Part shown: in pieces, positions 24,300 through 63,905 of the stretch
Layout of the letters: the number at the start of each line of letters is the position of its first letter
Position numbering within the stretch: the first letter of the stretch is position 1
The notes under the pieces: generated by a model
Database searches by the model: none
Seen by the model: only the letters and a program-made list of their open reading frames with translations
What the model was told of the DNA's origin: nothing
Translations under genes and position numbers: made by a program
IMG/VR virus record: IMGVR_UViG_3300032086_003797
Span: 96,001 to 160,000 of that record
Source: a virus
Length of the DNA stretch: 64,000 nucleotides
Reading direction: 5' to 3' (one strand)

Positions 24300-24306
24300 G
24301 ATTATA

Positions 24307-25945: not shown

Positions 25946-25948
25946 AGC

Positions 25949-27452: not shown

Positions 27453-27453
27453 A

Positions 27454-28841: not shown

Positions 28842-29041
28842 CAAAGAAAAGACACTTAGCAAAGGCGCTTAGCTGGCGAGCCGTTGGAACAATAGATACC
28901 ATGCTATTGGGTTGGCTCATATCGGGTGATCCTATGGTTGGGGTTAAAATTGGCGCAGTCGAATTGGTAACAAAAATATTTTTATATTATGCACACGAAA
29001 GAGCATGGTATAAATTCTCTAAGTTTGGGGTAAGAAAATGA
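28835..29041 (+). CDS. DUF2061 small membrane protein
   Basis: [14 protein letters not shown]...K..LYY.HERAW. Confidence 0.85.
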
Positions 29042-30383: not shown

Positions 30384-30385
30384 AA

Positions 30386-36523: not shown

Positions 36524-39500
36524 ATGGCACACAGTTTTGAGGACCTATACAATTTATACAGAAATCAGCCAGATGGACCTGATGCTGAGATTGCCTATTT
36601 TAGGCAAAATGGTATAAGACAAATAAATGTAAATGTTCGTGATGACCAAGCAACGGTGGTCATGATTGATGCTAACGGGCAAACTCACAGAGCTACAGGC
36701 AGAGTGCCTCAAGAAGAGGTGCCACCTCAAGCAGCACAAGAAGATCTTGGGTATGAGGGGAAGATTACATCAGACCCTTTATCTGTTGAGGAAAGATCGA
36801 TCATAGACCCCAATCCAGATATAGCCATATTTACAAATCAAGATGCATTTCATGGAAGTTACCCAGAAGATCGCCTACAGGAGTTAGGGATAACAAATCA
36901 AGGCACATGGTTCAATACATATAGGGAAGGATTGAGATATCGTTATAACCCCCCAAGCGAAGATATAAATAATCCAACCTCGCCTGAAGACGCCGCTCGG
37001 ATAACGGAGACATCAAAGTTAAAGTTTAAGTATAAACTTATAAAACAGCAAGCTACTAAATTAGCACCAATGTCTTTCCCATTCACAGTGGAAACAAGAG
37101 GGGCTAACAGGGTGCCGTTTAATCGTGCTTTCCCACCAGTTAAGGTTGAATTTACTCTATTGGATGCAATTTATTTTGCCACTCTACATCCTCATATAAT
37201 AGCAGGGTTCACAGTAGAAAGTAGAGGTTTCCTGTTTAGAGAAACAAAATATAAATTTCTATATCTGGAAAAAACCTCTACAGAGGATGAACCAGGCACT
37301 AGACTAGCAAGAGAAATAATGGTTGGTAGGGGCATGTACACGCAAACTGCAACTGCATCTACAAGAAAACCAGTTATGCCTTTAACTGCCCAGACTATCC
37401 CTACTAAGGCAGAACAAAAGGAATTGGACAGCACAACTGCATCCCTATCAGCACAAGAAAATCAAGAAAAACAAAAACAAGCAGAGCGTAGGTCTGCGGG
37501 AACAAGCAGAAACGCATCACTCCAAATGGATGGGACTAAGCCTCTTGGTAGGCAGGTATTATATGCAAAAATATTGGAAGACGGAGCAGTTTGGGTATCA
37601 CAGTTACCTAATGCGAAGCCTAGCGCAGATCCAAGTGTAGGGGAAACATCCTTAGCTAGCAGCATAACTAATAGTCATTTGAATAGGATAGTGCAAGCCG
37701 CAGGTGACGACGGATTACTGGATGATGAGAACGATGGAAAATGGTCAAATATAAATGAGTACACAGGTGATTTTTATGATACTACCACCGACCCTGGTAG
37801 AGAGAAATTTGCTTACGAAATAAAAAAGGTCGGCAATACTGTTTATATACAGAAGCTAGAAAAAGTTCAAAATGTAACACCTACTGAACAGAAACAAGAA
37901 GCGGACGCCAGTGCTATAACTTCCAACAACAGAACAGAAGATGCATATAACTATGATGACTGGACAACCAATATTAACTCTGATAGAGGCGTCCCCAATT
38001 CTTATTACAACCCCAGGTACCCTGAGTCAGTTGCTGTAGCCAAGGATGAAGGTTCTTATTTTGTGGTGATGAAAGCCCCCGCAGATGTTGAGGATAGTTT
38101 AGATTATCGAGCCGAAGAAGCTGAGCTAAAGGAATTGATGTATCGTGCTTTGTGCAACCACCTAAACAAGCCGATAACTGATATGCCTAGCACTCTGAGC
38201 CATGAGATGAAGACTCACTTTGACCCAAGGCCAAATTCAGCGCCACTTATAGCCTTGATAATAAAGAAGACAGAATTTGATAAGTCAGCAGCATCTGGCA
38301 ATATTAAAACTGATCTAGATGAACTAACCCTCCAGAGGGCTATATTGACCAGTCAAAAAAGGTCAGAAAAAAATATATCTTTTACTTTAGAAAAGATGGA
38401 CCCTTTATTCGAGACAGCTTCGCACATTGTTAGAAAATATGCACGCATTGTTGCTGGACAGGGATTGGGCTCGGCTGATATAGGAGTCAATTTATATAAG
38501 CAATATATGGCTCTATCTAAGTTTACTAGTAAGGTAAGATCAGCTTTAGCCCACAATGGTGTATATCCAGATGCAAGTGACCAAATAGAAATAGGATTTA
38601 CAAACGATTATCAAATGCTGCACATTATACATAAATCTAGGATGTATTTCAGTGGCTTTAAGAGGGCAACAATAGATAATGAAATAGCTGTTACTTTGGA
38701 AATAGATTCTATACAAGACCAACCAGAGGGACAGTTTCCATCACAATTAGAGAGCGACAAAAACTATTTTAGGATCTACAAGCAGACTGAATTTGGGTAT
38801 GTGTTTTTTGCAGAGGAGATAGTAAAAAACAACCCACCAAATGCTAGCGATCGAAAACTCACACCGTGGGTAGACTTTGTTCGACTTTATACATACCCTG
38901 CACCAACTATCAACCCAACTAAAGTTAACAATAAAAATAAACTTACCGATGACGGGGATGACCAGATACCATCTCAAAGCCTAACAGATACGGGATCAGA
39001 GATTGAATCTGATGATATTATAGGGAGTTCGCAGGTAGCATATGTAGATAAATCAGCGAGTAAGCCTGGCACACAGATAAGGACAGTAACACAGTCTCAA
39101 AAAGAATCTGAAGCCATCAATATTCGATCCTTCATTGAGAAGAAACAGAAAATAGAAAGAAAGGCAAAATCTTTAGAGCCGCTAGTAGAAGATGCAGTCA
39201 TGAACTGTGGTAATTTACCACAATTACTAGATCAGATCAAGGAGTTATCTGATTTGTTTGATTTGGTATTAGATCAAATTTCATTAGATGAACTGTTTGC
39301 AGCCCTACGAGATTCGCTCCTGCAAGATTTGCAAAAATTATTTGCTATGAAAGATTTAGCAGAAGGCTACACGCCAGGAGCTTTCGCAGGCGCTGGAGAT
39401 CAAGGAGAAGGTCTTGATACCACTCTTTCTACAAGAGCATCAAAACTTGTTTGCGCTCCTTCTTCTGAGTTTGAGGACTTTTTACAAAACGACCTGGCTT

Positions 39501-41923
39501 GTGCCTTAGACCAAATCGGTGATTCATTGAAGAACCAACTCCTTGGTCGAGACTTGAACAATTTACCACTTGATCAGCTAGTTGAGGATAGGATTCGCAA
39601 TCTATTCGGGATAAGCATACCCTTCATACCTATTGAGGGTATTTTATCATTTATACTAAAAATAGTATCCGAAATACTCAAAGAAGCCCTAAGACAAGTT
39701 TTGGTAGCTTTAGTGCAAGAGGCACTTGAAAAATATTTAGACTGTGAAAATATTCCACTTCTCGATGATAACATCGCTAAACTGGGAGATATAAAAAATC
39801 CCGCACAACTATTGGAGTATGGTAAATCTCGCCTGGGTGATCTAATCGGAGACATAGATCTTAACAAGCTTGTTGATGAGCTTGGGATAGAGTTACCCCT
39901 AGAACAGCTTCAAGAAGTATTTGAGAAAGTGTCAGATTGCCTAAACTCCATGGAAATGTTAGCTCTATTATCAGGCAACGCAGGTCCGTTGATAATGCAA
40001 CTTGTGCGTGAGCAATTCGGTGGACTTTTGCTAGATGATCAAATAGATTTATTATTTGACAAAATTGGTGACAATGTATCAGATGAAATAAAGAATGGTA
40101 TAGTGCCAGAGGAATTTTATGTTGACTACTGTAATAAGGCAGACTATGTTAGGGCAGCTAGCAAGGCTTTAGATCTGCTAAGAGACAAGGGTCTTACAGA
40201 CGAGCAAATTAAAAATCAAGCTGATGAGGAGATTAAGAGAGCAGCAGATAAAATAAAATCAATGTGTGATTTTGAAAACCTAGCCAACAATGCTTTGATA
40301 AATGCTCTTAATAACATAAAAGCACCTGATGCTATTGTAGACCTTCAGAGCAAAGCATCCTCCAATATTGCAGCAATAGCGCAAGCAGGGATTAAAGCAG
40401 AGGCAAAACCTTTCATCCTCGGTCGCACACCTCCCAAATATGGCGGTTTCAATCTTGGTTCACTTGCTCCTCTGATTCCATTTCCCGATCCAACATATGG
40501 ATCAGAACAATTAGTTCGTGTGTCAGACGATCGTAATTTAGCCTTGAAAGGTTCGGGCGGCAAAACCGCAGAGCGTGTAGAGGTTAGCTATAATTCAGAA
40601 CACGATGAATATCGGATTGGTAATCTTAGAATAGTTGTTTCTACTCCAACATCTGATGCTGATCGGGGTCCAACAGAACAAGCTGTAGGAATAAATGATG
40701 AGATACAGGAAAAGCCAAATGACATAGTAACAATTATAGTCCATGACATAAAGCCTGACAATCAAGGCGTTCGCCGTGAAACCTATGTTGACGAGTTTGG
40801 TCAGTTTATAGAAAGCAAAAAAGAAGAATTAGAGCAAGATAGAAATGTTTTAGTGTTTTTACAAACTCAGCCTGACAGGAATTATAGCCGCCCAACCCAC
40901 AGCCGACTGCCAAGATTTATCAACCGCCCAAGGGAACTGGGTGAATTCTTAAATCTGTTTTTATCCGCACATCAAGAAAACATATATGGATTTGGCATAA
41001 CAAGTGATCAAATAGAAGAGGCGTATATAGTTGGCAGTGAAGAAGATGGGGAAGCAGCATATCTAAGAGCGCCCGAATCACATGAGGCGGGCAAGTACCC
41101 CTATCCTTTGATGGAGAATTTGGTAATCGACCGTGGTAATGATATGGAAATATTCAATGCTTTTTTTAGAAAAGATGATATCAATCTCAAGAAAAACCCA
41201 AGACAAGATTATTTTGAGTCTGGGATATTCAATGCAGGGAAGGCATACGAGAAGCTTTATGCCGATTTACAGGAAGAGCCTACATTGGTCAACGCAGGAC
41301 CAAACTTTGAGAAAAAGGTAAAGAGAACAACTGCTACTGTTGGCATAGGCGCACGACTAATGCCATTCTTTTGTGCGATATGGCCTTTGTTCAACGCCCC
41401 AAGCGGACAAAGAATCAGGTTTGCATCCAAGGGAGAGGGTCAATATGATGACCGCATCTTTAGGGAGATTATAGAAAATTACCTTACAAGGAAAATAACT
41501 TTTCAACTTGAGAATCTAGGTGTCTTAGACATGTATAATAAGGTATTAGCAGAGGACGATTTTGAGATCGCCGATGTTGTTTCAGTGTTTCTGGATGGTA
41601 TATTTGTAGATAATCCCGATGAATCTAACAAAGTTTTATATGAAGCAATAAACTTCAACGACAGCATTCCAACAAGCGGACAGGGTTCCACCAGCCAACA
41701 TTTTGTTTTAAATGTCTTGGGCACTCAGGACGGAGTTAGTAATTATAATGCAGTTCGGGATAATATTTCTCGGAGCGTATATCCTGTCGAACCTCTTCTG
41801 GCGGTATCAACTATTTACTTAGAGACCTCTTGTAATGCAACTGGTTTATTGGGAACTTCATTTGTAAAGTCTTCAATAGATGCAGATCAATTACTTAGGA
41901 AGTTTTTTGATCCATTAATTTAG
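36524..41923 (+). CDS. Large hypothetical virion protein (1799 aa)
   Basis: Uninterrupted ORF in the baseplate module; helical Leu/Asp-rich central region. Confidence 0.6.
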   Translation: MAHSFEDLYNLYRNQPDGPDAEIAYFRQNGIRQINVNVRDDQATVVMIDANGQTHRATGRVPQEEVPPQAAQEDLGYEGKITSDPLSVEERSIIDPNPDIAIFTNQDAFHGSYPEDRLQELGITNQGTWFNTYREGLRYRYNPPSEDINNPTSPEDAARITETSKLKFKYKLIKQQATKLAPMSFPFTVETRGANRVPFNRAFPPVKVEFTLLDAIYFATLHPHIIAGFTVESRGFLFRETKYKFLYLEKTSTEDEPGTRLAREIMVGRGMYTQTATASTRKPVMPLTAQTIPTKAEQKELDSTTASLSAQENQEKQKQAERRSAGTSRNASLQMDGTKPLGRQVLYAKILEDGAVWVSQLPNAKPSADPSVGETSLASSITNSHLNRIVQAAGDDGLLDDENDGKWSNINEYTGDFYDTTTDPGREKFAYEIKKVGNTVYIQKLEKVQNVTPTEQKQEADASAITSNNRTEDAYNYDDWTTNINSDRGVPNSYYNPRYPESVAVAKDEGSYFVVMKAPADVEDSLDYRAEEAELKELMYRALCNHLNKPITDMPSTLSHEMKTHFDPRPNSAPLIALIIKKTEFDKSAASGNIKTDLDELTLQRAILTSQKRSEKNISFTLEKMDPLFETASHIVRKYARIVAGQGLGSADIGVNLYKQYMALSKFTSKVRSALAHNGVYPDASDQIEIGFTNDYQMLHIIHKSRMYFSGFKRATIDNEIAVTLEIDSIQDQPEGQFPSQLESDKNYFRIYKQTEFGYVFFAEEIVKNNPPNASDRKLTPWVDFVRLYTYPAPTINPTKVNNKNKLTDDGDDQIPSQSLTDTGSEIESDDIIGSSQVAYVDKSASKPGTQIRTVTQSQKESEAINIRSFIEKKQKIERKAKSLEPLVEDAVMNCGNLPQLLDQIKELSDLFDLVLDQISLDELFAALRDSLLQDLQKLFAMKDLAEGYTPGAFAGAGDQGEGLDTTLSTRASKLVCAPSSEFEDFLQNDLACALDQIGDSLKNQLLGRDLNNLPLDQLVEDRIRNLFGISIPFIPIEGILSFILKIVSEILKEALRQVLVALVQEALEKYLDCENIPLLDDNIAKLGDIKNPAQLLEYGKSRLGDLIGDIDLNKLVDELGIELPLEQLQEVFEKVSDCLNSMEMLALLSGNAGPLIMQLVREQFGGLLLDDQIDLLFDKIGDNVSDEIKNGIVPEEFYVDYCNKADYVRAASKALDLLRDKGLTDEQIKNQADEEIKRAADKIKSMCDFENLANNALINALNNIKAPDAIVDLQSKASSNIAAIAQAGIKAEAKPFILGRTPPKYGGFNLGSLAPLIPFPDPTYGSEQLVRVSDDRNLALKGSGGKTAERVEVSYNSEHDEYRIGNLRIVVSTPTSDADRGPTEQAVGINDEIQEKPNDIVTIIVHDIKPDNQGVRRETYVDEFGQFIESKKEELEQDRNVLVFLQTQPDRNYSRPTHSRLPRFINRPRELGEFLNLFLSAHQENIYGFGITSDQIEEAYIVGSEEDGEAAYLRAPESHEAGKYPYPLMENLVIDRGNDMEIFNAFFRKDDINLKKNPRQDYFESGIFNAGKAYEKLYADLQEEPTLVNAGPNFEKKVKRTTATVGIGARLMPFFCAIWPLFNAPSGQRIRFASKGEGQYDDRIFREIIENYLTRKITFQLENLGVLDMYNKVLAEDDFEIADVVSVFLDGIFVDNPDESNKVLYEAINFNDSIPTSGQGSTSQHFVLNVLGTQDGVSNYNAVRDNISRSVYPVEPLLAVSTIYLETSCNATGLLGTSFVKSSIDADQLLRKFFDPLI

Positions 41924-41934: not shown

Positions 41935-42333
41935 TTGTCAAGAGTAGGTATTTCACCAGCGTTGCCTTTAGCATATACGAAAGAGGATGGACCATATGGT
42001 CTTAATAAAACCATTAGGGATTCAATTCAACAGAATTTTAAAAATATCCTCTTGACTAGTAAGGGTGAACGTGTAATGTTGCCCGATTTCGGCGTTGGTC
42101 TTAGATCTTTCTTGTTCAGTAATTTCACACCTTCATTGCTAGAGCGGATAAGAGCCGAAATAAATAAACAAGTTGCGTTGTATCTTCCATTTATAGAGCT
42201 TACAGAAATTGAGTTTATATCTTCAACAGAAAGTGATCAGGTAGCACTGAACCAACTACAGATACAAATAAGATATGAAATTACGCCTATAAATGAGTCG
42301 GATACACTTACTATATTTGAATCAATAAACTAA
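41935..42333 (+). CDS. Baseplate wedge subunit, gp25/GPW-like
   Basis: IQQNFKNILLT.KGERVM.PDFGVGL...LF...I...V..YLPFI; TTG start after AGGAG. Confidence 0.9.
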   Translation: MSRVGISPALPLAYTKEDGPYGLNKTIRDSIQQNFKNILLTSKGERVMLPDFGVGLRSFLFSNFTPSLLERIRAEINKQVALYLPFIELTEIEFISSTESDQVALNQLQIQIRYEITPINESDTLTIFESIN

Positions 42334-42360
42334 ATATATTTTAGTAGGAGTTTATTATTA

Positions 42361-44148
42361 ATGGCTAAAAGACCAGTAAACTATATTAGCCGTGATTTTG
42401 AGAGCATCAAGCAATCATTAATAGATCATGCAAAACGTTATTATCCCGACACATTTAAGGACTTTAACGAAGCATCGTTCGGCTCCTTGATGTTAGATGC
42501 AGTATCCTATATTGGAGATAATTTATCCTTCTATGTTGATTATCAGGCAAATGAAAGTTTTCTTGATAGCGCAATAGAGACAGATAATATTACTAGACTA
42601 GCCCGTCAGATGGGTTATAAACAGACTGGTACTACAGCAACAGAGGGGATTATAACTGTATATGTTTTAGTCCCAGCTTCAACAACTTCTAGGGGACCAA
42701 ATATAGATTACATCCCAATCATGAAAAAAGGCACTACCTTCAACTCTGAGACTTCTGGCATTTTTACACTACAGGAAGACATCGACTTTGCTGACCCAGC
42801 TAATGAAGTGGTAGTTGGTCGTGTCAATGAAGCCACAGGCGACCCCACATATTACGCAATAAAATCTAAAGGGAAGATTATATCAGGTGAATTAAATCAG
42901 GAAACATTTGCCGTAGGGACCTTTACAAAATTCCTTCGCCTCAAAATGGATGGTCTGAATATTAGTGAAATAGTATCAATAAGAGACTCAGAGGGGAATG
43001 AATATTATCAAGTACCATACTTGTCGCAGAACGTGATATATGAGCAAATTGTTAACAATGCTTCAGATAAAAGCGTGGTACCATATAATCTAAGAATAAG
43101 ACCAGTACCCAGAAGATTTATGACAGAGTTCATTGATGGCGAGGTGTTTTTACAGTTTGGATTTGGATCAGAAGGTAACCTGACTGGTGATTTGGTCGCA
43201 GATCCTGCTGATGTGGTGCTGGATGTACATGGTAGAAACTATGTAACAGATGATAGTTTTGACCCTAGTAATCTTATAAAAAATGACAAATTTGGTGTGG
43301 TGCCAACCGATACGATTTTGACAGTGATCTATCGATCCAACAGCACTACAACAGCAAATGCCAGCGTGAACACGGTGACCTCACCTTCGGCAGTAAACCT
43401 GGTGTACAAGTCTCTTAGTTCGCTCGACTCTACCGTCACTGATTTTATTGAGTCTTCAATTGAGAGCACAAATGAACAACCAATAATTGGTGACGTTACA
43501 GCACCAACCCAAGAAGAAATAAGAATGAGAGCTTTCGATTCCTATGCATCTCAAAATAGGGCGGTAACGAAACAAGATTATATTGCACTTTGTTACAGAA
43601 TGCCAGGAAATTTTGGCTCTATCAAAAGAGCAGCCATAGCGCAAGATAGAGATTCTTTTAAGAGGAATCTAAATCTTTATGTTATATCGGAAGACCAGGA
43701 TGGTAATTTTATAAATCCACCAACCTCATTGCTTAATAATTTAAAATCGTGGTTGAATCAATATAAAATGATCAATGACACGATAGACATTTTACCAGGC
43801 AAAATAGTCAATTTGCAGATAGATTTTGAGGTTGTTACAGATTTAGAATCAAATAGATTTGATGTAATAAATGAGTGCATCAATCGATTGAAAATTGATA
43901 TGGCTGTCAAGAAAAATATTGGAGAGCCCTTTTACATAACTGAATTATTCAAGACACTTAATAGCGTCCCAGGTGTAGTAGATACCATATCTGTAAACGT
44001 GGATACTAAGACAGATGCAGGTTATAGTCAGTTTCCGTTTGACATAGAACTGAATACTAGTCCTGATGGAAGGATCTTATACGCCCCTTCTACTGTGGTG
44101 TTTGAAATCAAAGCTCCAGACCAAGACATACAAGGGATCGCACGATAA
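42361..44148 (+). CDS. Baseplate wedge protein, T4 gp6/baseplate J-like
   Basis: Y.SRDFESIK..L...YPD...DF..S.G...D.LSFY.D...NE.FL.SA...LA..MGYK, FG.G, QNRAVT.QDY. Confidence 0.88.
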   Translation: MAKRPVNYISRDFESIKQSLIDHAKRYYPDTFKDFNEASFGSLMLDAVSYIGDNLSFYVDYQANESFLDSAIETDNITRLARQMGYKQTGTTATEGIITVYVLVPASTTSRGPNIDYIPIMKKGTTFNSETSGIFTLQEDIDFADPANEVVVGRVNEATGDPTYYAIKSKGKIISGELNQETFAVGTFTKFLRLKMDGLNISEIVSIRDSEGNEYYQVPYLSQNVIYEQIVNNASDKSVVPYNLRIRPVPRRFMTEFIDGEVFLQFGFGSEGNLTGDLVADPADVVLDVHGRNYVTDDSFDPSNLIKNDKFGVVPTDTILTVIYRSNSTTTANASVNTVTSPSAVNLVYKSLSSLDSTVTDFIESSIESTNEQPIIGDVTAPTQEEIRMRAFDSYASQNRAVTKQDYIALCYRMPGNFGSIKRAAIAQDRDSFKRNLNLYVISEDQDGNFINPPTSLLNNLKSWLNQYKMINDTIDILPGKIVNLQIDFEVVTDLESNRFDVINECINRLKIDMAVKKNIGEPFYITELFKTLNSVPGVVDTISVNVDTKTDAGYSQFPFDIELNTSPDGRILYAPSTVVFEIKAPDQDIQGIAR

Positions 44149-45629
44149 TGGCTATCAAATTATATGACGCAACACAAGACAACACAATAACTAATGCTTT
44201 CAAGGCTGATTTATTAACCAGAGCTACAGGGTCCAATATGGGCGCTGCTGACATATTAGAAACATTTGTTATACACGGGCAAACGTCAGCTAGTATCAAC
44301 TCCCAAACTGCGGAAGAGGCTAGAGTATTATTACAATTTGATATTGCTAATATTTCTACAGATAGAGCAAATGGAGTAATTCCAGCTTCAGGAAGTGTCA
44401 ACTTCATATTAAAAGTCAGAAATGCTAAGCACGCTGATACACTACCAGATAATTTGACACTTGATATCAAAATGGTTGCGAATAGCTGGGATGAAGGTCG
44501 TGGCGTGGACATGGATGGATATAAGGATATTGATGAGTGTAACTGGGTAAAGAGGACATCAGGTGCAACCTGGAATGGAACAGGTAGTGATTATTTCACA
44601 GCCCAGGCTACTAGCAACTTCTCAGGATCTGTGCTGTTCCCCAACGGCGATGAGGACATGGAAATTGATGTTACTCCTGCTGTAGAAGATTGGATAGCAG
44701 GAACACGCAACAACTATGGATTTATAATCAAGAATACAGATTCTGCCATCAGCGGTAATGTTGGCAGCCTGTTCACTAAAAGATTTCATGCAAGAAGTAC
44801 AGAGTTCTTTATGAAGAGACCAGTGATCGAAGCACAGTGGGACGACTCAACAAAAGACCAGAGAGCTAACTTTTTTCTTAGTAGCTCAGCCCTGTCGGCA
44901 GCAGATAATCTAAATACTTTGTTTTTATACAATAGATTCAGAGGTAATCTTACAAATATAAGTGGACTTACAAATGATGCACTAAGTGTATCGTTTTATA
45001 CTGCATCCTCAGGCGGAGCCCCGATAGGCTCACCAGTTATCGTAACAGATGCTACGGGTTCATCGGTAACAAAAATTGAGTGCGGTCGTGAGATTAATAA
45101 CGGCGTCCGCTCAACAGGAATTTATACAGCGTCGTTTGCAATCACTAGTTCTGATGCAACATTGTTTGATGTGTGGTTCACTGGCTCTACCGAGTTCTTC
45201 ACTGGCTCTTTTAAGCCGCAGTCATACACTCCAAATCTTGAAGACAGAACAGAGCCATACTTTAATAAAATAACAAATCTGAAACCAACATATAACAGAC
45301 TAGAAAAGCCAAGATTACGAGTTTTTGCGAGACCTAAAAGATGGCAACCAACGATTTACACTGTTGCATCTGTTGATGTTGAAAACACAATTGTAGAGGA
45401 TGCTTATTATAAGATATTCCGTATAGAAGACAATATAGAAGTGGTTTCTTATGGCACTGGAACCATGAAGTATAGCAGACTTTCTTACGATGTTAGTGGT
45501 AATTACTTTGACTTAGATATGAGTCCATTAGAGGCAGGATATTCATACGGAATACAACTTGCGTACTATTTACAAGGACAGTACAAAGAACAAGCAGAAA
45601 TATTCAAATTCAGAATTGAAGAGCCCTAA
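44148..45629 (+). CDS. Virion protein with DNRLRE-like domain
   Basis: A.QDNTI...RVLLQFD...W.EG.G...W...DVT..V..W..G..NYG.IIK...F..R...RP.IE..WDD. Confidence 0.55.
   Translation: MAIKLYDATQDNTITNAFKADLLTRATGSNMGAADILETFVIHGQTSASINSQTAEEARVLLQFDIANISTDRANGVIPASGSVNFILKVRNAKHADTLPDNLTLDIKMVANSWDEGRGVDMDGYKDIDECNWVKRTSGATWNGTGSDYFTAQATSNFSGSVLFPNGDEDMEIDVTPAVEDWIAGTRNNYGFIIKNTDSAISGNVGSLFTKRFHARSTEFFMKRPVIEAQWDDSTKDQRANFFLSSSALSAADNLNTLFLYNRFRGNLTNISGLTNDALSVSFYTASSGGAPIGSPVIVTDATGSSVTKIECGREINNGVRSTGIYTASFAITSSDATLFDVWFTGSTEFFTGSFKPQSYTPNLEDRTEPYFNKITNLKPTYNRLEKPRLRVFARPKRWQPTIYTVASVDVENTIVEDAYYKIFRIEDNIEVVSYGTGTMKYSRLSYDVSGNYFDLDMSPLEAGYSYGIQLAYYLQGQYKEQAEIFKFRIEEP
45565..45574 (+). promoter_or_regulatory. 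Candidate phage promoter motif ACTATTTACA
   Basis: About 60 nt upstream of the 3706-aa gene start. Confidence 0.4.
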
Positions 45630-45631
45630 AT

Positions 45632-48600
45632 ATGAGCATAAAAAAGTTATTTGATGCAAAAAAAGCAGGAACACTTGGTGGTGCCACTCGCTCAACCCTA
45701 AAAAAGCTTGGCGATAATGTAGAGTCACCAGAGCAAATTGAAGCAGCTTTATCGAAAGCTAGGGCTTTTTCACCAAAGATTGATTTTTCAGATCCAGCCA
45801 ATTTCGTTAAATATGGCTCAGCCTATCGTTATTATTATGATACATTTGGATATATCAAAGACTATTATCCTTACGACGGTAGTTCTAGGGAAAAGCTAGA
45901 ATTTTATAATGGATTATCGCCGTTTGAACAGTATATTTTCAACAATGAATACCCTAAAACTACTGGGTATGTTACGATAGGAGCTATTTACGGCACAGAT
46001 GGAGCATCTAAGCAAGGATACACTACGCCCACTACAGCGGAGTACATCCAGTTTAAGGGCGGACCACACAGCGGAACCTTTTTTGCTACAGGATCAGGAC
46101 TAAGTAACAATTTAGAGTTTGGCGGCATCAGTGGCTCAACAGTAGAATTCTTCTATAACAAGACTGAGTTCGATAGTACTATATCGTCCCCAACAGAGGT
46201 GATTCTAGATATTTGGAACGGTGTGTCAAGTGGCTCACATGACTACGGTCGCCTTACGATTGAAACGGATTCAGGATCAGCAGATAGATTTTATGTTTCA
46301 TACCAATCAGGATCAAGTGGTGTGTTTAAAGCATCGGTCCCCACCGCAGGTGGTTTAACACTAGGAAGTGGCTCTTGGGATCATTATGCTTTTGTGTTTT
46401 CCAATAGTGATGATTCTACTTCTATTGATCTTTATGAAAACGGCACATGTAAACAAAGTAATATCCTAACTGGCTCTTCCATCAACTTAGTAACAGGCAG
46501 TCTGATCGGAAGGCTCGGTGCATTAAGAACAGCCCCAGGTCCAATACAGGCAAGTGGCTATGGAACCCAGGCAACTGCCACAGATGCCATTGATATGGCT
46601 GGGTATCAGGCTGCTGGTGATCCTGCTATCAAATTTAACATAACAATTCCTGTCGCCGCAGGTGGGTCTAACACTACCATTACGATAAAATTTGACATCT
46701 CCTCGGGCGGCTCTCCTGTAAGTGCAGGCGCAGACCATATTACCATTGGCACCGCAGGCTCAAACGATGCAGCGAATGCGGCTCTTGTTATAAAAGCAAT
46801 AAATGGTGATACGGACAGCAGAATCACTTATGGAAATGGTTCGGGCGACGGATCATCAGGAATAGGTGTACAGGGACTTACAGCATCAGCAGGAAGCTCA
46901 AGCACCAAGGTTACCCTAACAATTAGTAAGGGTGGCACGTCAGGAAATATTAACAGTGCTGTTGCACACGGCGCAGGGACAGTTAACGTAGTTGATGTGG
47001 CTAACTTTACTGGCGGTGCGGTGATACCCGCAGGGGACGGTAAATTATCGGCTTCTTTGGACGAGTTCAGATTCTGGAAAGAGCCTAGAACAGCAGAAGA
47101 AATTGGTCGCAATTGGTATATGGGTGTTAATGGTGGTGCGAACACCACCATAAACAACTCTGGACTAGGGATATATTATAAATTCAATGAGGGCATTACA
47201 CAGGTTTCTACAACAGATAATGTTGTGCTCGATTATTCTAGTAGGTTATCAAATGGTGCCTGGACTGGTTATTCTACATCAGGGACCAGGAATACAGGAT
47301 CTGCTATAGTATCATCTAGTGCTGCGGGATTTGAGACAGCCGACCCAATTATTTATGATACACATCCAACCTATATTTCATCCAGGGATGACCTATCGTC
47401 TTTAGGGCAGCAGTATGATTATACAAACAACTCCAGTTTGTATTACACGATGCCAGGGTGGATTATTGAACAAGATGAAAGAAACGGCGAAGAACTAGCA
47501 AAACTAACACAGATTATGGGAAGCTACTTGGATACCCTGTATGCCCAAGTAGGCGGTGTACTAACTGTAAAAGACGTTAGTTACCCCACAGGGAGTGTGC
47601 AAGAATCTCCAAACAATGATAGACTATTGTCATCATTAGGGTTTGAGGCTCCTGATTTATTTGATTCTGTTGGTGAGATAGTAAGGTTCTTAGATAAGGA
47701 TGATAAGAGACCATTAGAATCCTCCATACATCAAATTAAAAACATAATCTATAAAAACATTTATAACAACTTATCTTATATCCTTAAATCAAAGGGTACT
47801 AGAAAATCGTTTGGTAATACCTTACGTTGTATGGGCATCGACGAAAAAATAGTAAAAATTAGCACCTATGCTGATAATGTTGAGCAGACCATAACCAGCA
47901 GCTACAAAGCCATTCCAACAGAAAAGAAATTTGTTGACTTTAGTGGTCTTCGTAGGTATGATGATCAAGCTGCCACAATATATCAGCATTATTACGCAGA
48001 TGGATACGATGGGGGTTCAAGTGGGCTTATATCAGGCAACTTAGACCTTGGAGATAATGCATTTACATTACAAGCAGATATCCTCTTCCCACTGAAGCCT
48101 TCCCCAGCAGAGGCTTCATATATTGAGCCAACCTCGCCTAGCTCCTCTTTGTTTGGTTTTCATACACCAAAAATTACAACAACTACGTCTACTGACACTG
48201 CTTGGGCTTCAAACACAATAGACTTTGGGTTGCAGGTGTATGCTGTCCACGCCACAACGGACTACTCTGAAATAACAAGCCCCCAAGGTGCTTCTAGGGA
48301 TGCATATTTTGTAGTAGAAGATAGGTTTGGAAATATTCTTCTTAAGACTGATACAGTTAGAGAAGTATATCAAAATACAAGGTGGGTTTTTGCACTCTCG
48401 GCTCGACCAAAAACCTATCCATTCTCTCAAGAAGTTGATGGTACGGATAATGATGACCAGTCATATATTATAGAATTATACGGAACAAGTTTTGATCTGG
48501 AAGATAAAAGAGCATCTTTTGATTCTAGTAAAATAGTAAATTTTGTAACTGGGTCCTCTACGCTCGCCTCTGCGAAAAGAATATACGCTGGAGCGCACAG

Positions 48601-51600
48601 GACCGATTTTAGCGGCTCATTATTAACCAGGTCTGATATTAGACTTAACTCATGCCGCTTTTGGAATACATTTCTTACATCATCCGTTGTTGATCAACAA
48701 GCTAAAGACGCTGATGCATATGGTCTTGTTCATCCGTATAGAAATGTAAAAACCTTTCAAACTAGTGGTTCCAGTGTTTTTATTCCAGCGATAGAATCGC
48801 TAGCACTTAATTGGGATTTTGAAACTGTTACAGGCAGCGATGCCAGCGGTCAATTCAGGGTAGATGATTTTAGCTCAGGCTCTAATTCAACCGCATACGA
48901 AAATAATTATCAGGTTGAGTATGCTGGAACAGTGCAACGCCATCACTCTGCTCGTGGCGACTTCTTTAAGGCGAGCGATACTCCAGTAAGAAAAGAATAT
49001 TTCCCCTCCCTAAGGTTACAAGCGCCAGAAGAATTATCTTCAGACGATATGATAACGGTGATTGTAGAGGGATCAGATGATAGTGTTTATGGTCGAGCAC
49101 CCAGACCTATAAGGCATTTCTTTGCAGTTGAAAAAAGCATGTACGATGCAATATCAAACGATATGCTTGAGATGTTTGCATCAATAGATGAGTTCAACAA
49201 TCTTATTGGTGAGCCTGTAAACAAGTACAGGGCAGAGTACAAAGACCTTAAGAAACTTAGAGAGATATTCTTTCGCCGTGTTACTGGACAGCGAGTTGAT
49301 TTAGACAAATACTTAGATTACTATAAGTGGTTCGACGGCGCTCTTACAAACCTTGTGGAACAGTTGTTCCCCGCTAGTGCGCCAGTGGCAGAAAACACCA
49401 GAAATGTTGTTGAGAGTCATGTTTTAGAAAGAAATAAGTATCAGCATAAGTACCCAACTCTTGAGGAGTACCCGTTTGAACCATCTGGTTCAATTAAGGG
49501 TGGGTATGAACAGCAGTATAGTTGGCGATTCAACCATCACCCAATAACAATGACGGGATCAGTTGCATCTGCGGCTGATGCGATCGATATGGATGGCTAT
49601 CAGGCTGCCGCAGATCCTTCAAGTAGATTTACTATTCAAATACCTGTTGCAGCGGGTGGATCTAATACTACCATAACTATCAAGTTTGATGTATCATCGG
49701 GCGGCTCACCATCTAGTTATGGCGCCAACGCTATCACTATTGCTACAGCAGGATCAGACGACGCATCTAATGCCGCTTTGGTGGTCAAAGCTATCAATGG
49801 TACTGCTGACAGTAGAATTACATACGGTAATGCGGTGTCTGTAGGGGATGGATGTGCAGGTATTGGTGTTCTGGGTATTACCGCTGCGGAAGGCAGTAAC
49901 AATAAAAAAGTAACTCTAACTATGACCGTTGCTGGTACAAATGGCAACATTACCAGTGCGATAGCACATGGTGCTGGCACAGTAAACCTTGTTGATGTAA
50001 ACGACTTTACAGGCGCTAGTGATGATATTATAAAAAATGATCAAGGCGAAAATTGTAGTTGGTGGGCTAATCGGGCAGAAAGAAATGCCAATCCTCTAAA
50101 TTTGGGTCCAAATGCTGTTGTAGGTGCCGCAACAACACTAGATAGACAAAATATTTTTACATCTGTGCGCAAGAAAGAGCTTGACAATCAAAGAAATAAG
50201 TTCTATAAATTTGGTGGTGCAGTAGAAAAGTCTGTTGCTGGCGGACATAATCAATCCTTCAATAAGATAAAAGCTAACGTTTTATCGTTTGATCAGGTAT
50301 CGGATCAGAGCACTTGTACAGATGAGGAAGTCCCAGCAGGTTCTCCTTTAGAAAAATCAAGGCAGAAGTTTAGAATCTCGATTGCTGGGCAAACCTATAA
50401 AGGCGACCGAATGGCTCCCTTTAGTTTATATAAAGCATTGGTGCCTAGCGAACACAATAAGCAGCTTACGAACACTGGCTTGTCTGGTAGTCACATGACG
50501 AATATCCATGAGGATTCATATTATGGAAGCGGTTTTGAGGTTCCAATGCAGGGTCCGTTCACAAGCCAACATGTCGGTGGTTTGCTAGCTAGAGCTAGAA
50601 CAAGTCAAATTGAAGGCGCAGTCAATCTCCGCCGTGAAAATTATAGACTTACTATCGCAAGCGGAACAGGCAGCTTGGCAAGGTTAGACACTGAAATTGG
50701 TGCCAACAGTTCAGGCAAGGGGCATTATTACAGAGGGATCACAGCCAAAAGACCTGTCAACATTGCTAATATTGCCCACCAGACGGCAAGCGACGGCGGC
50801 GGTCCAGGCGGTAGTGGTGGTACTATAGTGGGTAATTTCGATAAAAATTACCAAGTGCTCCAGACTTCGGGTCGAAAAATAAATAACTTAGACTTTAGAG
50901 ATGACCCTGATGCATATAACCCAAGTGCTTTCTTATCGCCATATGTCGGTGGTTTGGTCGAGACTCCTGTGCCATCAAGAAGAAATACAGAATACACACT
51001 CAAGGCAAGAACAACTAATAAAACTATATTTGTAAATAGGTTTTCATCGCCTGGCAGCGTAGAAACAAATACACCTGCCTTCTTGGATTTCAACTCGCAG
51101 GAAATAGCACCGAATAATGCACTGCCTTTTAGAAACATGCTAATCAGATCAGTTAACGAAGGTCACAATACGCTGTCGCAGGGCTGGGGTGGTCATATCA
51201 ACACCACTCAAAGATCCTTCCTTGGTCTAGGATATACGATCCAAGACCTAAACACAGGTAGTTTTTCCACGGTAGTTACGTCAAGACACGATGTAAATAG
51301 AAATGCTAAACCTAAACCTTTCTTAACTCAATTCGATTTATCTGCATTCGGTCAGGGTCAGATTGAATCTATAGGCTCAGGTAGTATACATAATAATAAC
51401 TTTATTACAACCCCTATTCCGCAAGCTGATAACATGTCTTGGTTTATGGCTTATTCGGGATCTGATACGCAAACATACAATCATTTCTTCCATAGTGGTG
51501 GCTTGATGCCTGAATCTATAACTGTTCCATCCCCACCCAATTTAGAAGGTCAGTCTGGCATAAATGAAGGTACACCGTTTAGTATTTCTGCTGTAGCAGA

Positions 51601-60500: not shown

Positions 60501-61491
60501 ATATATAAATTACAATTATGATTTTGAAGAAATAAGACAGCTTGTAGGCTCAAATAATCAGCAGACAGATTTGACGGACCCAATGCGAGACTACTCTAGA
60601 TATGCAGCTTACTGGCTGAATTACAAACAGCTTGCAAGGGTAGAGATATTAAGTGGATTTTCACTTACAGCAGGCGGACAAATCAACATATCATCAGCAA
60701 ATTGGAGAGAAATATCTGTGCAAGACATTAATAGTTTGCCAGTTAGGTCTATTATGTTATGTAGGTTTTCTTCTGCTTTGCTTGCATTGGGTGATTTAGG
60801 GGACATGTTGGGACTAAGCTCCCCAAGCGGGCTTGACTTGCCAACATATAACCAGTATTTTCTTCTGACTCGCACTGACGAAGAAGAGGGCGTATCAATT
60901 ATAGAAGAAGATATACAAATTGAAGAAGCACCCCAACAACTGCAAACATTTGAGCCTACCGCAAACCAGCAGCAGCTTGAGAGTTTTATTCTATCCCCAG
61001 AACCTCCTCAGATAGGTGATAGAAATCAAATAGCTAGAGTATTGGAAAGGTTTGGTAACAATGTAGTGCCTAAACTGGATGTTCAGAGGGTTTTTACACC
61101 ACCACCCGTATCTATGGACCAGGCTCCACAAAATGGAATGGATATTATTACACCAAAACGAGAGTTAAGAGAAGAGGTCGTCAGACCACCAGTGCAGCAA
61201 AATATACCCGCAAGGACAAAATTTGAAGATTTGCTAGATAACATTATTCAGACTCCCAGGGATCAAGTCAGAGAAACACGACAGGTTGCTCAAAGATTAC
61301 AAGACACGCAACCAAATGTAAGTAGGCAACAAAGTCAGCGCCGTGGCTTCACGCAGGCGAGACAAAATAACATGCAGCAGTCTAGATTAGGACAGAACCA
61401 AGCAAGAAACTTCCAAAGGACAAATATGAATGTTAATACACCTATGAGAAACATCAACACCAACAACTTCGGCGGCGGAGGAGGATACTGA
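57589..61491 (+). CDS. Large hypothetical virion protein (1300 aa) with Q/N/R-rich low-complexity tail
   Basis: Long ORF coupled by TAATG overlap; ends ...NTNNFGGGGGY. Confidence 0.6.
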   Translation: MPQFRFDSCVAFDGLTPEISIRKVTFEPSLDAAQADSGAGYLTVNSSFIETVEDEAQDTWFDDQEGQQYTSIRTLVSVDSNITKQLMNIIRAVTEQRDGLEGDLSLMSDLINGIHDFSEEEATQAAELLGLLGTHQMENGHFHPGQNHASFRAAVRRLAACIRALTSRTFFGADPDGSGIYGANERFSLTEGGRNRVLTFGDPTNNNLFVIEQSMRSLTMDEQFMAQMEKTINDDGAEVRVANMPRLQYVSIPLNADHLTVLSFAFIDTEALRQTFDETPQGERLDFTFTDVTTAIVQSNVFITPLSETAEEALSPDTTNLSPQSNIFEDLRGVFAITRTLDTRSGYTNERESNGVNLSDFEDEIRSMSVDVDEGIQKALSRNSTVFSDLWSSRRRDDAIDLSFVFNERLFLKQSSVFPKLYQNETFALLADGLGGGVSRIRVYKQQVNSKILTNDNSLSTSSRASLLLGRDQEKEYISTGLDNEMLINDFSEDLYFGSRAEGNGKTRGLMFLTCTDYDNQDARNVIGKTFQYGVEIDYVDPTVDMVLKMTNGLLEQAQNIQDIIEDLVNQPSSDPDERRRLHGSTTERLNNIMRRWVPLMDALASIDIISGAGSIQDYVNRMAGTADQTVYERAESIGRIVDIFQFYGSELEIELRKAVPGIEVYPGDDSPESANYASSGGSGTGSTSRSINTIEYRFNNILPADQGAGYDYLRYEEEPTINPGLEIVSLTDYLNRCDIETEKYFTNPGSVKGANAAKVKYFTPSVILNPLGQSIVQVGDNIRDYNNYANFTAGMISYKNQKDNMVAVNKSSLGQDIGLDTAEIFLQELQSQGVTVEYNTDRNRNRDQVNNRSPFSKIGLGNSKQEQTESNQSDLLDRDENLRSRRGEEQETRDVQSDDRDVKKALANLLGPMSLSTNNSGTQQKDKANSFTKVVLKAPEETFEDISLFPNQLKAMVSIVLSKFNDDVDEYINYNYDFEEIRQLVGSNNQQTDLTDPMRDYSRYAAYWLNYKQLARVEILSGFSLTAGGQINISSANWREISVQDINSLPVRSIMLCRFSSALLALGDLGDMLGLSSPSGLDLPTYNQYFLLTRTDEEEGVSIIEEDIQIEEAPQQLQTFEPTANQQQLESFILSPEPPQIGDRNQIARVLERFGNNVVPKLDVQRVFTPPPVSMDQAPQNGMDIITPKRELREEVVRPPVQQNIPARTKFEDLLDNIIQTPRDQVRETRQVAQRLQDTQPNVSRQQSQRRGFTQARQNNMQQSRLGQNQARNFQRTNMNVNTPMRNINTNNFGGGGGY

Positions 61492-63905
61492 TGAGTAGAA
61501 GAAACTTGACATTTTTTGGAACTACGCAAGGGGTGCCACTTGAGGCATTTGATGACTTTGCCCTAACTCGTGGCTTGGATGATCTACGACGAGGTAGAGG
61601 AGAGAATAGGGGACAAGTTACATTTACCAAAAGACGAGTACAAGTTGGTAGAGGTACTTTTGCCACTGAAGACAAAGTAGATATTGATCTAAATGCAATA
61701 AGGGTTGGAGTTGATGATGATGACTATCGTCGTTTTGGTTCTCGGGAACTGAGAAAATTTGAAAACGCACTTGCTGACTTCTATACTGAAATAATCGAAC
61801 CGATCCAATACAACACGATAGCTATAGACATAGATCATCTGCCGTGGGTCCGAGACACTAAGGAAACAAACGATTATCTTAAGACAGTTGACTCTTCGGG
61901 GCAAATAGTAGAAATAACCCCAACATATAACTATTATGCTGGCTCATATGAAGAAATGTTGCCTATGCTTGATGAGAGAATCCTTCCAAGCCTATATGAA
62001 ACTGAAATCTGTAGAATATTAAGCGAACGTGATAATGATTTTTATGTTGGCTCTGATAGATCGCTGGCTAGCGCAAGAAGTCGTTGCAACGATCTACTCC
62101 CTCAGACTCCTGATGATTGGAATGACTTCGGAACTCTTCTAGGTGAAAATCAAAACTTTAATCCTGATTCAACAAATATTACTGTTTTCCCACAAACAGA
62201 GATCAAACAAATATTAAACTTACATGATAAGAAGAATCTGTACCCAATGTATGTGGATATAACATTCCCAACAGCCCCAACAGGACCATTCATGAAGGCT
62301 GTAGAGCAAGCTAAGTTAAGTACAACTTTATTCGATACAATAATAGGTATCCAAACGGGAGTAGGACCAGCAACCTATCCCATCAAAGGATCTACCAGCA
62401 CTGTGGTTAGACTTGATGAGGAGACCGTTGAGAGCCAGCCAGCATCATTTACTGGACAGGTAGAGGTGCTGAGCATCGGACCCGCAATTGAAACAATGCT
62501 CAATCAAGCAAGAGCAGGACAGAACGAGCAAGCAGCAAATGCAGAGTTCTTAACTCTTAGAGGAAACGAAAGGAACCCAGGGCAAGAGACTGGCAGTTGC
62601 CTTAGTTTGCTCGATCGAGTATACATGAAAGCTATAACAGACAGAATCGATACTATCCTCAGCCGAGCAACCGCACCAGGCTTGATCAATAGACTGAACA
62701 GCAGAACGTCAATTCACCCAGCAAAAATTGGTTTACCTAATGATTTAGCCGAAGACACAGGGCAAGAAATTATAGCTTACTCTGTAGAAAAACGCTACGC
62801 TGGTCGAGCAGCGGTTTTGTCTACTCATATATTCCCCAACAGTGATGATTTGGGAGTTCTTAAGTATGTTGACACACAAGTAAAAAATGAGATAGATTAT
62901 GAATACGATGTATATGCACACATACTGACGACATCTGAAAGGGGAACGCTAGAATTTGAGTCCAATTTTGCCCCAAATCGATATGCAATTAAAACCACAG
63001 TGGCAGATAAAGAATTAGTTTTGGTCAAGGTTCCAGTCGCCTCTAAGAAAAACTTTGTAGACGAAGAGTTGCTAGCAAGAGGGCGTTTTGTAACGCCTAA
63101 TGGTATATCATTCCCAGAGATAAGAATAATTGATAGACCACCTGTCCCACCTAACTTTACATTTATACCATATAAGGGTGTAAAAAACAAACTATTAATC
63201 AAATTGGAACGTCAAACAGATGAACTCACAGGACAGAGAACTGTTCCATTCATTCCTATTATGAATGGTGATGCGGATAGGTTTAATCTCCTTCGTGATC
63301 ATCAGCTAATAGAAAACTTTGATTTACCTGAAGGTCATGTTGAATTTAAATCTGAAGGTGAAGATACCACTTTAGTGCAAGTGTTTAGAACCACAGAAGA
63401 GCCAAGGTATGACATAGACCCAGAAGATGGTAGTATAATAAATATAAAGAAATCTGCATACGCTAATTTTTCTGATAATCTTTATAGGGAAGTAACTGCC
63501 GATGCTGGCTTGGCTTTTACTGACACCCTAACACCCAATACAAAATACTACTACACGTTTAGATCTGTTGATTTAAGTGGCAATTTCTCTAACCCAAGCG
63601 CCATCATGCAGGTAGAAATTGTAGAAACTGAAGGTGTCACATATCCACTAATCAAAGAGTATATACCAAATCGAACAGAGCCAAATAAGCAAGACTCCAG
63701 AACAATGGCTAGGTTCTTGCAAATTAGACCATCTTATCTGATGTCAGAACCACTGCCAGATCCAGATGGTAACTTAGCAGTTGGGCAAAGAATAGACGAC
63801 ACAACATTTGGTAAGCACTATAAAATTAGAATAACATCATTAGATACAGGTAGACAGTTTGACTTAAACTGCACCTTTGAGAAGAAAACACAGGAAGAGT
63901 CATGA
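61491..63905 (+). CDS. Hypothetical virion protein with FN3-like segments
   Basis: YVDTQVK....YEY.VYA and FTDTL.PNTKYYY.FRSVD..GN.SNPS resemble FN3 C-terminal strands. Confidence 0.55.
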   Translation: MSRRNLTFFGTTQGVPLEAFDDFALTRGLDDLRRGRGENRGQVTFTKRRVQVGRGTFATEDKVDIDLNAIRVGVDDDDYRRFGSRELRKFENALADFYTEIIEPIQYNTIAIDIDHLPWVRDTKETNDYLKTVDSSGQIVEITPTYNYYAGSYEEMLPMLDERILPSLYETEICRILSERDNDFYVGSDRSLASARSRCNDLLPQTPDDWNDFGTLLGENQNFNPDSTNITVFPQTEIKQILNLHDKKNLYPMYVDITFPTAPTGPFMKAVEQAKLSTTLFDTIIGIQTGVGPATYPIKGSTSTVVRLDEETVESQPASFTGQVEVLSIGPAIETMLNQARAGQNEQAANAEFLTLRGNERNPGQETGSCLSLLDRVYMKAITDRIDTILSRATAPGLINRLNSRTSIHPAKIGLPNDLAEDTGQEIIAYSVEKRYAGRAAVLSTHIFPNSDDLGVLKYVDTQVKNEIDYEYDVYAHILTTSERGTLEFESNFAPNRYAIKTTVADKELVLVKVPVASKKNFVDEELLARGRFVTPNGISFPEIRIIDRPPVPPNFTFIPYKGVKNKLLIKLERQTDELTGQRTVPFIPIMNGDADRFNLLRDHQLIENFDLPEGHVEFKSEGEDTTLVQVFRTTEEPRYDIDPEDGSIINIKKSAYANFSDNLYREVTADAGLAFTDTLTPNTKYYYTFRSVDLSGNFSNPSAIMQVEIVETEGVTYPLIKEYIPNRTEPNKQDSRTMARFLQIRPSYLMSEPLPDPDGNLAVGQRIDDTTFGKHYKIRITSLDTGRQFDLNCTFEKKTQEES

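Follow-up and report, generated by a model that had tools for sequence, protein, structure and literature searches.

The tripeptide [ST][GA]S (Ser or Thr, then Gly or Ala, then Ser) is several-fold enriched in a small set of virion proteins of a marine T4-like phage and its relatives, and in one related lineage it was lost together with a block of glycan-synthesis genes. The phage is represented by IMG/VR record IMGVR_UViG_3300032086_003797, a genome of 174,625 bp that is estimated to be 95% complete; we analyzed its bases 96001-160000 (64,000 nucleotides, hereafter the window). The window encodes a myovirus baseplate module in which gp25-like and gp6-like proteins are followed by a protein of 493 amino acids (aa), called p493, a giant of 3706 aa and more large proteins. 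Upstream of the baseplate genes is a block of glycan genes (11809-31375) with a family-4 glycosyltransferase (GT4a), a second GT4-like enzyme (GT4b), a GT2, a GT-D-like and a WavE-like protein, nucleotide-sugar enzymes, a methyltransferase, a sulfotransferase and an adenosine 5'-phosphosulfate (APS) kinase. With a probability that we put at roughly 55%, the tripeptide would be an acceptor tag for an O-glycosylation of the outer virion proteins that depends on the variable part of this block, the island.

Tripeptide excess and residue specificity

The earlier note, which was made from the sequence of the window alone, had counted about 45 motifs in the giant, about 10 in p493, about 13 in a fibre-like protein at the start of the window and about 5 in a 1799-aa protein; a recount gave 46, 10, 13 and 5. 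It had also reported very few motifs in the enzymes, which have 0-1 each, and an expectation from composition that was several-fold lower than the number found in the giant. The latter estimate agrees with our value of 10.5 expected motifs for this protein (z 11). p493 has its 10 motifs against 1.2 expected (z 8.6) and the fibre-like protein its 13 against 3.5 (z 5.2); the full 786-aa open reading frame (ORF) of the latter, which starts 447 nt before the window, contains 17 motifs against 4.2. The excess in the 1799-aa protein is marginal (5 against 1.9, z 2.2; T[GA]S 4, S[GA]T 0). Genome-wide, a strong excess is limited to the fibre-like protein, p493, the giant and two proteins of 378 and 364 aa, which are encoded just beyond the window. 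The gp25-like and gp6-like inner wedge proteins, with 0 motifs against 0.1 and 0 against 0.8 expected, serve as an internal negative control. Mild enrichment is seen in the major head protein, a neck adaptor and the sheath, where most motifs fall beyond the conserved cores; the numbers are too small for testing.

The excess depends on the order of the residues. With the palindromic SGS set aside, the giant contains TGS 17 times and the reverse SGT 4 times, TAS 8 times and SAT not at all; TGT is also absent. When the five enriched proteins are pooled, T[GA]S occurs 43 times and S[GA]T 7 times, with 8.2 expected for each. An analytic first-order (dipeptide-aware) expectation for the giant gives 22.9 motifs, half of the observed number, and TGS and SGS rank first among the tripeptides of this protein that have real counts. 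The excess persists after shuffling inside blocks of 15 to 100 residues, and this result rules out local compositional bias. Both Ser codon families (AGY and TCN) and every Gly and Ala codon are in use in the motif. This mixed codon use rules out a DNA-level oligomer as the cause and therefore indicates selection at the protein level. Ser, Thr and Gly are abundant in the enriched proteins, and such tripeptides have a baseline of about 1.3-fold in the rest of the genome. A chance or compositional artefact is nevertheless effectively refuted: the z of 11 survives local shuffles, the forward to reverse ratio is 43:7, and the result is replicated in 118 + 120 homologues (see below). We give this explanation a negligible chance; the excess is real and lies far beyond chance.

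The signal from the fibre-like protein is weaker evidence. It consists mainly of SGS, lies in part in a short internal repeat and has no directionality. A profile self-search of the giant revealed no hidden domain repeats except one duplication, in which residues ~311-462 match residues ~1308-1463 (profile E ~1e-50; window 46562-47017 and 49553-50020). The first copy of this duplication sits inserted within the Laminin_G_3-like domain of the protein. As to other tripeptides of the giant, DS[DE] is absent (0 against 2.4 expected), and NTT occurs 7 times against 1.3 expected, which is not significant after correction for the number of tripeptides.

The residues around the motif are also selective. 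Over 242 instances the extended pattern is Φ-[ST]-[GA]-S-Φ, where Φ is a hydrophobic residue. At position -1 hydrophobic residues are enriched 1.67-fold, as had been suspected from the window, and the acidic residues are depleted (Glu 0.08-fold, Asp 0.32-fold). At position +1 hydrophobic residues are enriched 1.55-fold and Pro never occurs.

Homologues of p493 and of the giant reproduce the excess. The p493 family comprises more than 3,300 marine proteins of constant length. A set of 118 homologues with ~50% identity has on average 9.6 motifs against 1.55 expected, with a mean of 5.3 for T[GA]S and 0.58 for S[GA]T. Most of the motif sites of p493 are present in 80-94% of the members, often by means of swaps within the class (SGS, SAS, TAS). 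The column specificity was determined from nine conserved motif columns in 53 non-redundant members. T and S, in roughly equal shares, fill position 1 in 95%, and G, A, S or C fills position 2 in 95%. Position 3 is more restricted; it holds Ser in 86% and Thr in only 7%, while control Ser columns hold Ser in ~68%.

The 120 homologues of the giant contain 3919 motifs against 1011 expected, and even the lowest member is enriched at least 2.3-fold. A profile over ~400,000 residues of these proteins gave T (5.5-fold) and S (4.4-fold) at position 1, G (4.9-fold), A (2.7-fold) and S (2.4-fold) at position 2, and S (4.9-fold) and T (1.9-fold) at position 3. All other residues reach at most 1.5-fold at the motif positions, and there is no preference for Asn and Asp, which are typical of turns. 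Giants with 65-91% identity keep their motif sites above background; at 65% the exact tripeptide identity is 0.61 vs 0.36. At 35% identity merely 7-8 aligned sites are in common, yet the proteins have 28 and 35 motifs against 6-8 expected. The load of motifs is therefore maintained while the individual sites turn over.

The closest cultured relatives, Flavobacterium phage vB_FspM_immuto and Microcystis phage Mel-JY01, are distant (~32% gp6 identity). Both show the excess, partly on proteins that have no homologue in the window genome; the 'tail spike' of immuto, for example, has 53 motifs against 12 expected. This excess on largely non-homologous fibre proteins of other clade members suggests a factor acting in trans. 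Orthologues of gp6 have 0-1 motifs in all relatives, and orthologues of the 1799-aa protein are not enriched. The control phages gave no comparable signal. In T4 the 21 proteins checked (including gp5-12, wac and gp34-37) have 13 motifs against ~23 expected. The 3328-aa giant in the equivalent position of cyanophage S-RIM44, with a similar content of Ser, Thr, Gly and Ala, has 8 against 7.3 and a forward to reverse ratio of 3:3. No tripeptide in the T4 and S-RIM44 controls came near the signal of the window.

The immuto 'tail spike' (L001 35305-38466) has a conspicuous architecture of its own. Its N-terminal half is a periodic fibre of [ST][GA]S[FY] units and F-x-G-D-G-S-x-L-T-G-I repeats, and its C-terminal part contains YadA-head-like 'SHAEG' repeats.

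Joint loss of the motif and a glycan island

The relationship between motif and glycan genes was analyzed in 63 loci from viral metagenomes that are anchored on gp6 and extend far enough downstream of it. The proteins encoded downstream of gp6 are 2.0-6.1-fold enriched in all but three of these loci, namely L071 (1.3-fold), L073 (1.7-fold) and L089 (0.9-fold). L073 belongs to the 145-kb contig G006 and L089 to contig G007. Orthologous proteins are enriched 0.9-1.7-fold in these two contigs, which lack the island, vs 2.9-5.6-fold for comparison. The motif is hence not equally common in island-less homologues, which are at baseline. A genome-wide analysis of G006 found no enriched protein; its 4362-aa giant is at baseline and not directional. 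A search of motif-poor and control phages for a substitute tag (DS[DE], LS[AGS] or any tripeptide) found none.

In the window the island encodes GT-D-like and WavE-like transferases, a DegT protein, a HAD phosphatase, a PfkB kinase, an RpiB fusion, a split transketolase, a methyltransferase, a sulfotransferase, an NAD-dependent dehydratase/epimerase, the APS kinase, a small nucleotidyltransferase and a UDP-GlcNAc 2-epimerase. It occupies a fixed site between GT4b and homologues of the genes at window 31457 and 32195. The inserted segments of related contigs are different glycan cassettes, with GT47-like, DUF6625 and Sulfotransfer_1 proteins in G002 and with GT9-like, DegT, GDP-mannose dehydratase and radical SAM proteins in G013. 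The sulfotransferase and the 2-epimerase of the window are common only to close relatives. In this respect the island resembles a serotype-like hypervariable locus, since its gene content differs between genomes much as that of an O-antigen locus does.

G006 has the order PhoH, two conserved genes, GT4a and GT4b, and then directly the genes that follow the island in the window. Consequently GT4b and gp6 are 10 kb apart in G006 and G007 vs 18-34 kb in 16 motif-rich contigs. The island is present in these 16 contigs and absent from the two motif-poor contigs that could be scored; the L071 contig is too short for scoring. A quick tree of gp6 joins L073 and L089 as sisters (100); closest to them is L067, which is island-bearing and motif-rich, and L071 comes next. 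All four are nested in the motif-rich clade, while T4 and S-RIM44 are outside. This nesting of the motif-poor lineage makes the joint loss of island and motif a secondary one.

L073 and L089 encode p493 orthologues that match p493 in length, are ~40% identical to it and contain 0 motifs. Their conserved motif columns read TDA, PKP, YVD, FAA, EGE and IGT. Since these residues are unrelated to the motif, the p493 fold does not need it.

We compared the positions of the motifs with predicted structures. The AlphaFold2 (AF2) model of p493, with a predicted local distance difference test (pLDDT) score of 72.6, consists of a CBM96-like jelly roll and then immunoglobulin/fibronectin type III (Ig/FN3)-like sandwiches. 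Its ten motifs are found in mixed contexts (loops, strand starts, a hairpin turn and mid-strand positions), and the two in low-confidence loops are the two most conserved sites. The Laminin_G_3-like region of the giant has 8 motifs within residues 153-290. Residues ~120-560 of the window protein have no Pfam match at E<0.01; many homologues carry PF13385 in this region, and the LDEFRFW end signature is present. The AF2 model of residues 120-560 has a pLDDT of 39, which is too low for use.

These data bear on the explanation that the motif is an intrinsic feature of the beta-rich folds of the clade, such as a turn, a bulge or a polar sheet face, and is not modified at all. A beta-strand with Ser/Thr on one face would fit the hydrophobic residues at -1 and +1 and the small middle residue; furthermore, some instances fall on canonical Gly positions of the Laminin_G_3 fold, and the motif of the immuto fibre lies within its periodic repeat. 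We nevertheless regard this explanation as quite improbable, because orthologues of the same length do without the motif and have unrelated residues in its place, the giant of G006 shows neither excess nor direction, and the analogues in T4 and S-RIM44 have no excess. The mixed contexts in p493, the lack of a preference for Asn and Asp and the absence of hidden domain repeats from the giant argue in the same direction. An ordinary beta-turn is likewise at odds with these residue preferences, with the contexts in p493 and with the control tail proteins.

Features of the window and candidate enzymes

The features discussed here are collected in Table 1.

Table 1. Positions of genes and regions in the window, or in the genome where indicated
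Feature	Position	Strand	Remarks
Fibre-like Gly/Ala-rich protein, C-terminal 636 aa of a 786-aa ORF	3..1913	+	13 motifs, mainly SGS
GT4a, family-4 glycosyltransferase, clade-wide core	11809..13065	+	PF00534; E-x7-E intact
GT4b, divergent GT4 paralogue, clade-wide core	13044..14315	+	E-x7-E kept
547-aa protein, first gene of the variable island	14315..15958	+	~300-aa N-terminal domain, then GT2 (PF00535 at residues 305-429)
Variable glycan-synthesis island	15955..31375	+	
1799-aa protein	36524..41923	+	Marginal motif excess, 5 vs 1.9 expected
gp25-like (41935-42333) and gp6-like (42361-44148) inner baseplate wedge proteins	41935..44148	+	PHROG matches
p493, 493 aa, directly after the gp6-like wedge gene	44148..45629	+	10 motifs; CBM96-like jelly roll, then Ig/FN3-like sandwiches
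Giant, 3706 aa, baseplate or fibre protein	45632..56752	+	46 [ST][GA]S motifs; N-terminal Laminin_G_3-like jelly roll
1300-aa and 804-aa proteins, 3' of the giant	57589..63905	+	No motif excess, 1 vs 1.9 and 1 vs 0.8 expected
378-aa motif-rich protein just beyond the window	genome 160954-162090		6 vs 1.2 expected
364-aa motif-rich protein just beyond the window	genome 162102-163196		7 vs 0.8 expected

A protein-atlas search with the 1300-aa and 804-aa proteins gave no useful match. The 378-aa and 364-aa proteins have a ~90-aa C-terminal module in common with several otherwise unrelated fibre proteins of immuto (L001) and Mel-JY01 (L002), which may be a common attachment or assembly domain. The first 2000 positions of the window, with the fibre gene, have a G+C content of 0.47 vs 0.35-0.43 elsewhere in the window; this may reflect the Gly/Ala-rich composition of the protein or a recent acquisition. 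Within the island, the DegT-type aminotransferase gene (16706-17747) is apparently split over two overlapping frames of 146 and 236 aa, while the gene in G013 is full-length (399 aa). A frameshift, a sequencing error or a genuine split could each be the reason. The two transketolase halves, the RpiB-type fusion, PfkB, the HAD phosphatase and the small nucleotidyltransferase (19307-24299 and 29982-30383) resemble a pathway to nucleoside-diphosphate (NDP)-heptose-like sugars. If such a pathway holds, the 133-aa nucleotidyltransferase could be the sugar-1-phosphate nucleotidyltransferase.

A search for the enzyme that would write the modification started from the GT4 pair. GT4a matches PF00534 with 47.6 bits (cut-off 26.4) and was found in 13 of 16 related contigs; these 13 include the motif-poor G006 and G007. 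The E-x7-E of GT4b (E-GYGLPLF-E) aligns to that of GT4a, and relatives of GT4b carry PF00534 and PF20706. In metagenomes the GT4b family exceeds 3,000 members; of 50,697 phage records, only those of immuto and Mel-JY01 contain it. In phmmer searches against PDB sequences the best matches of both proteins were generic GT4 enzymes (BshA, MshA and PBCV-1 B736L). The initial sample had the pair in six motif-rich genomes and not in T4, S-RIM44 and LR756508. As a predictor of the motif the pair thus fitted 6 positive and 3 negative genomes, and it was then ruled out by its presence in G006 and G007. GT4a and GT4b therefore belong to the core of the clade as a whole, and their presence does not suffice for the motif. 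LR756508 (L003), a 484-kb uncultured jumbo phage, nests by gp6 in the branch of immuto and Mel-JY01; it is devoid of GT4b and GT2, and any excess of the motif in it is weak (8 vs 2.7 pooled).

Other candidates were also rejected. GT2 cannot be the determinant, as PF00535 is absent from the motif-rich contigs G013, G015, G018, G019 and G021. A screen for genes that are present in G013 and G002 and not in G006 resulted in five, of which only the gene for the 547-aa protein adjoins the GT pair. Its N-terminal domain was found in 9 motif-rich contigs and in 0 of 3 motif-poor ones, and the 547-aa protein is the island component most consistently found in motif-rich genomes. The domain is ruled out as a universal determinant by its absence from the motif-rich immuto, Mel-JY01, G010 and G012. 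Immuto and Mel-JY01 have a short GT2 after GT4b, and in G010 and G012 the GT2 is fused to GT4b. Since no gene fits all genomes and the GT4 pair is kept in the motif-poor lineage, no writer can be named; the best candidate is the module directly after or fused to GT4b, that is, an N-terminal domain of the 547-aa type and/or a GT2.

In many relatives (G010, G012, G018, G019 and G022) GT4b is fused to GT2 or to an unassigned C-terminal extension, with frames of 650-690 aa; in the window GT4b and GT2 are separate adjacent genes. No ThyA or hydroxymethylase homologue was found in the 95%-complete genome. A DNA sugar as the target of the enzymes would therefore have no obvious substrate.

Proposed glycosylation and its known counterparts

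According to the reading that we prefer, Φ-[ST]-[GA(S)]-S-Φ would be kept by selection on outward-facing proteins, namely p493, the giant, the small fibre-like proteins and, more weakly, outer head and sheath domains. Most likely the enzymes of the phage island would O-glycosylate the Ser or Thr of the tag in the host cytoplasm, before or during tail assembly, with an acceptor tag that is conserved and a glycan that probably varies. The earlier note had proposed an O-glycosylation sequon from the window alone. This proposal has gained from the enrichment, from the distinction from a beta-turn feature and from the loss in the island-less lineage; its candidate enzymes, GT4a and GT4b, have proved not to be sufficient. 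In a wider form, which we hold at slightly under even odds, an abundant marine T4-like clade would run its own sequon-directed O-glycosylation. The tag would mark outer tail proteins along with certain domains of head and sheath. Its glycans would come from a hypervariable cassette at a fixed locus and form serotype-like coats that diversify as bacterial O-antigens do, and whole lineages could discard tag and island together.

Several findings weigh against this reading. The two neighbours of the giant, of 1300 and 804 aa, have no excess of motifs, and avoidance of the motif by the remaining proteome was sought and not seen (1.3-fold). Several p493 motifs are predicted at mid-strand with hydrophobic flanks, and the residues would therefore have to be modified either prior to folding or on a sheet face that is exposed. 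GT4a, together with a short, 389-aa GT4b, is kept in the motif-poor G006 and G007, and no single island gene is common to all motif-rich genomes. Modification of the tag, its nature as a glycan and the candidate writers are all inferred from the pattern. Finally, the joint loss of island and motif is essentially one evolutionary event, as L073 and L089 are sisters, and a shared third cause such as a host switch is therefore possible.

The last point leads to an indirect covariation. The motif could be an adaptation of the tails to one class of host surface, with polysaccharide binding by hydroxyl pairs as an example. The island would then modify the host envelope or some other target, and both would be lost after a host switch. 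Besides the single co-loss, the CBM-like domain of p493 and the lectin-like LamG domain of the giant would fit such an adhesin biology, and relatives of GT4b often match the Pfam family 'GT4-conflict'. A binding surface would, however, not be expected to need one directional tripeptide across many unrelated domains, including those of the outer head and sheath, and the motif is kept in phages of hosts as different as Flavobacterium and Microcystis. We consider this scenario rather improbable.

The tag could also be read by another trans factor or be modified otherwise, by phosphorylation, acylation, recognition by an assembly chaperone, or O-sulfation via the sulfotransferase and 3'-phosphoadenosine 5'-phosphosulfate (PAPS) genes of the island. 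The specificity for a hydroxyl residue, a small residue and Ser marks a recognition motif and leaves the chemistry unspecified, and a sulfotransferase and an APS kinase are encoded in the window island, with a different sulfotransferase in G002. On the other hand, only one block of genes tracks the motif. Most of its genes are for nucleotide-sugar enzymes and glycosyltransferases, and it differs in content from genome to genome. O-sulfation in particular is disfavoured, since the motif-rich immuto and Mel-JY01 lack the sulfotransferase of the window and both sulfotransferase families found usually act on carbohydrates or small molecules. Together, these data make a modification or reader of this kind unlikely, though worth keeping in mind.

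Should the tag prove to be a genuine glycosylation sequon, abundant phages of the ocean would commonly have sugar-coated virions. To our knowledge, such virions have so far been demonstrated only in mycobacteriophages, and searches of the literature turned up no report of them for this clade. A defined sequon would make glycosylated virion proteins predictable from sequence and would account for the 10-24 kb of variable sugar-synthesis genes in these phages. The glycans could then provide variation in adsorption, defence evasion or particle stability, and the tag might be of use as a compact cytoplasmic O-glycosylation tag for glyco-engineering. The matched sister lineages with and without the island, together with the two cultured relatives, make the idea directly testable.

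Among known systems, mycobacteriophages come first. As cited in PMC12619734, Freeman et al. (2023) propose that glycosyltransferases encoded by these phages decorate their own structural proteins in the cytoplasm, and show experimentally that the glycans are on C-terminal extensions of capsid and tail-tube subunits. The phage genes for GT4a, GT4b, GT2, GT-D-like and WavE-like enzymes in the window are a similarity. Unlike in mycobacteriophages, the motifs here are mainly in baseplate and fibre proteins, along their whole length and in folded domains, and are known from sequence alone; moreover, a discrete three-residue tag is coupled to a hypervariable sugar-synthesis island of 10-24 kb.

A second comparison is with GtfA/GtfB, GT4-fold enzymes that O-glycosylate serine-rich-repeat adhesins in the cytoplasm, and with the Ala/Ser/Thr-rich glycoproteins of Lactobacillus, such as Acm2 and the L. 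buchneri SlpA with its Ser-Ser-Ala repeat sequon (PMC5796085, PMC6973325). The Ser acceptors flanked by small residues (S-A-S type), the two adjacent GT4-fold genes and the follow-on GT2 and GT-D enzymes are alike. The differences begin with the enzymes, as GtfA (Gtf1, PDB 4pqg) matches GT4a with an E of 0.19 and GT4b with 0.26 only. GtfB is a non-catalytic partner, whereas GT4b keeps the catalytic E-x7-E. The substrates of GtfA/GtfB are long low-complexity Ser-rich repeats, while the motifs here are scattered in non-repetitive domains that are predicted to be folded. In addition, the GT4 pair persists where the motif is lost. We therefore treat the likeness to GtfA/GtfB as an analogy only. 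With respect to the CAZy family GT4 (GT-B fold, retaining), GT4a has the Glycos_transf_1 domain, the relatives of GT4b have PF00534, and E-x7-E is found in both GT4a and GT4b.

The general O-glycosylation system of Bacteroidota also uses a three-residue sequon, D-(S/T)-(A/I/L/V/M/T) (PMC5796085), and at least one member of the clade infects a Bacteroidota host (Flavobacterium). The two sequons are distinct, as the earlier note had proposed, because Asp at -1 is depleted here (0.32-fold). Furthermore, the Bacteroidota system is periplasmic and operates via an oligosaccharyltransferase, whereas phage tails assemble in the cytoplasm.

The glycan shields of HIV Env and influenza HA are made by the N-glycosylation machinery of the host at shifting N-x-S/T sequons. 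They are similar to the phage proteins in that the total load is kept while individual sites turn over between lineages. Unlike in these viruses, both the machinery and the tag would here be the phage's own.

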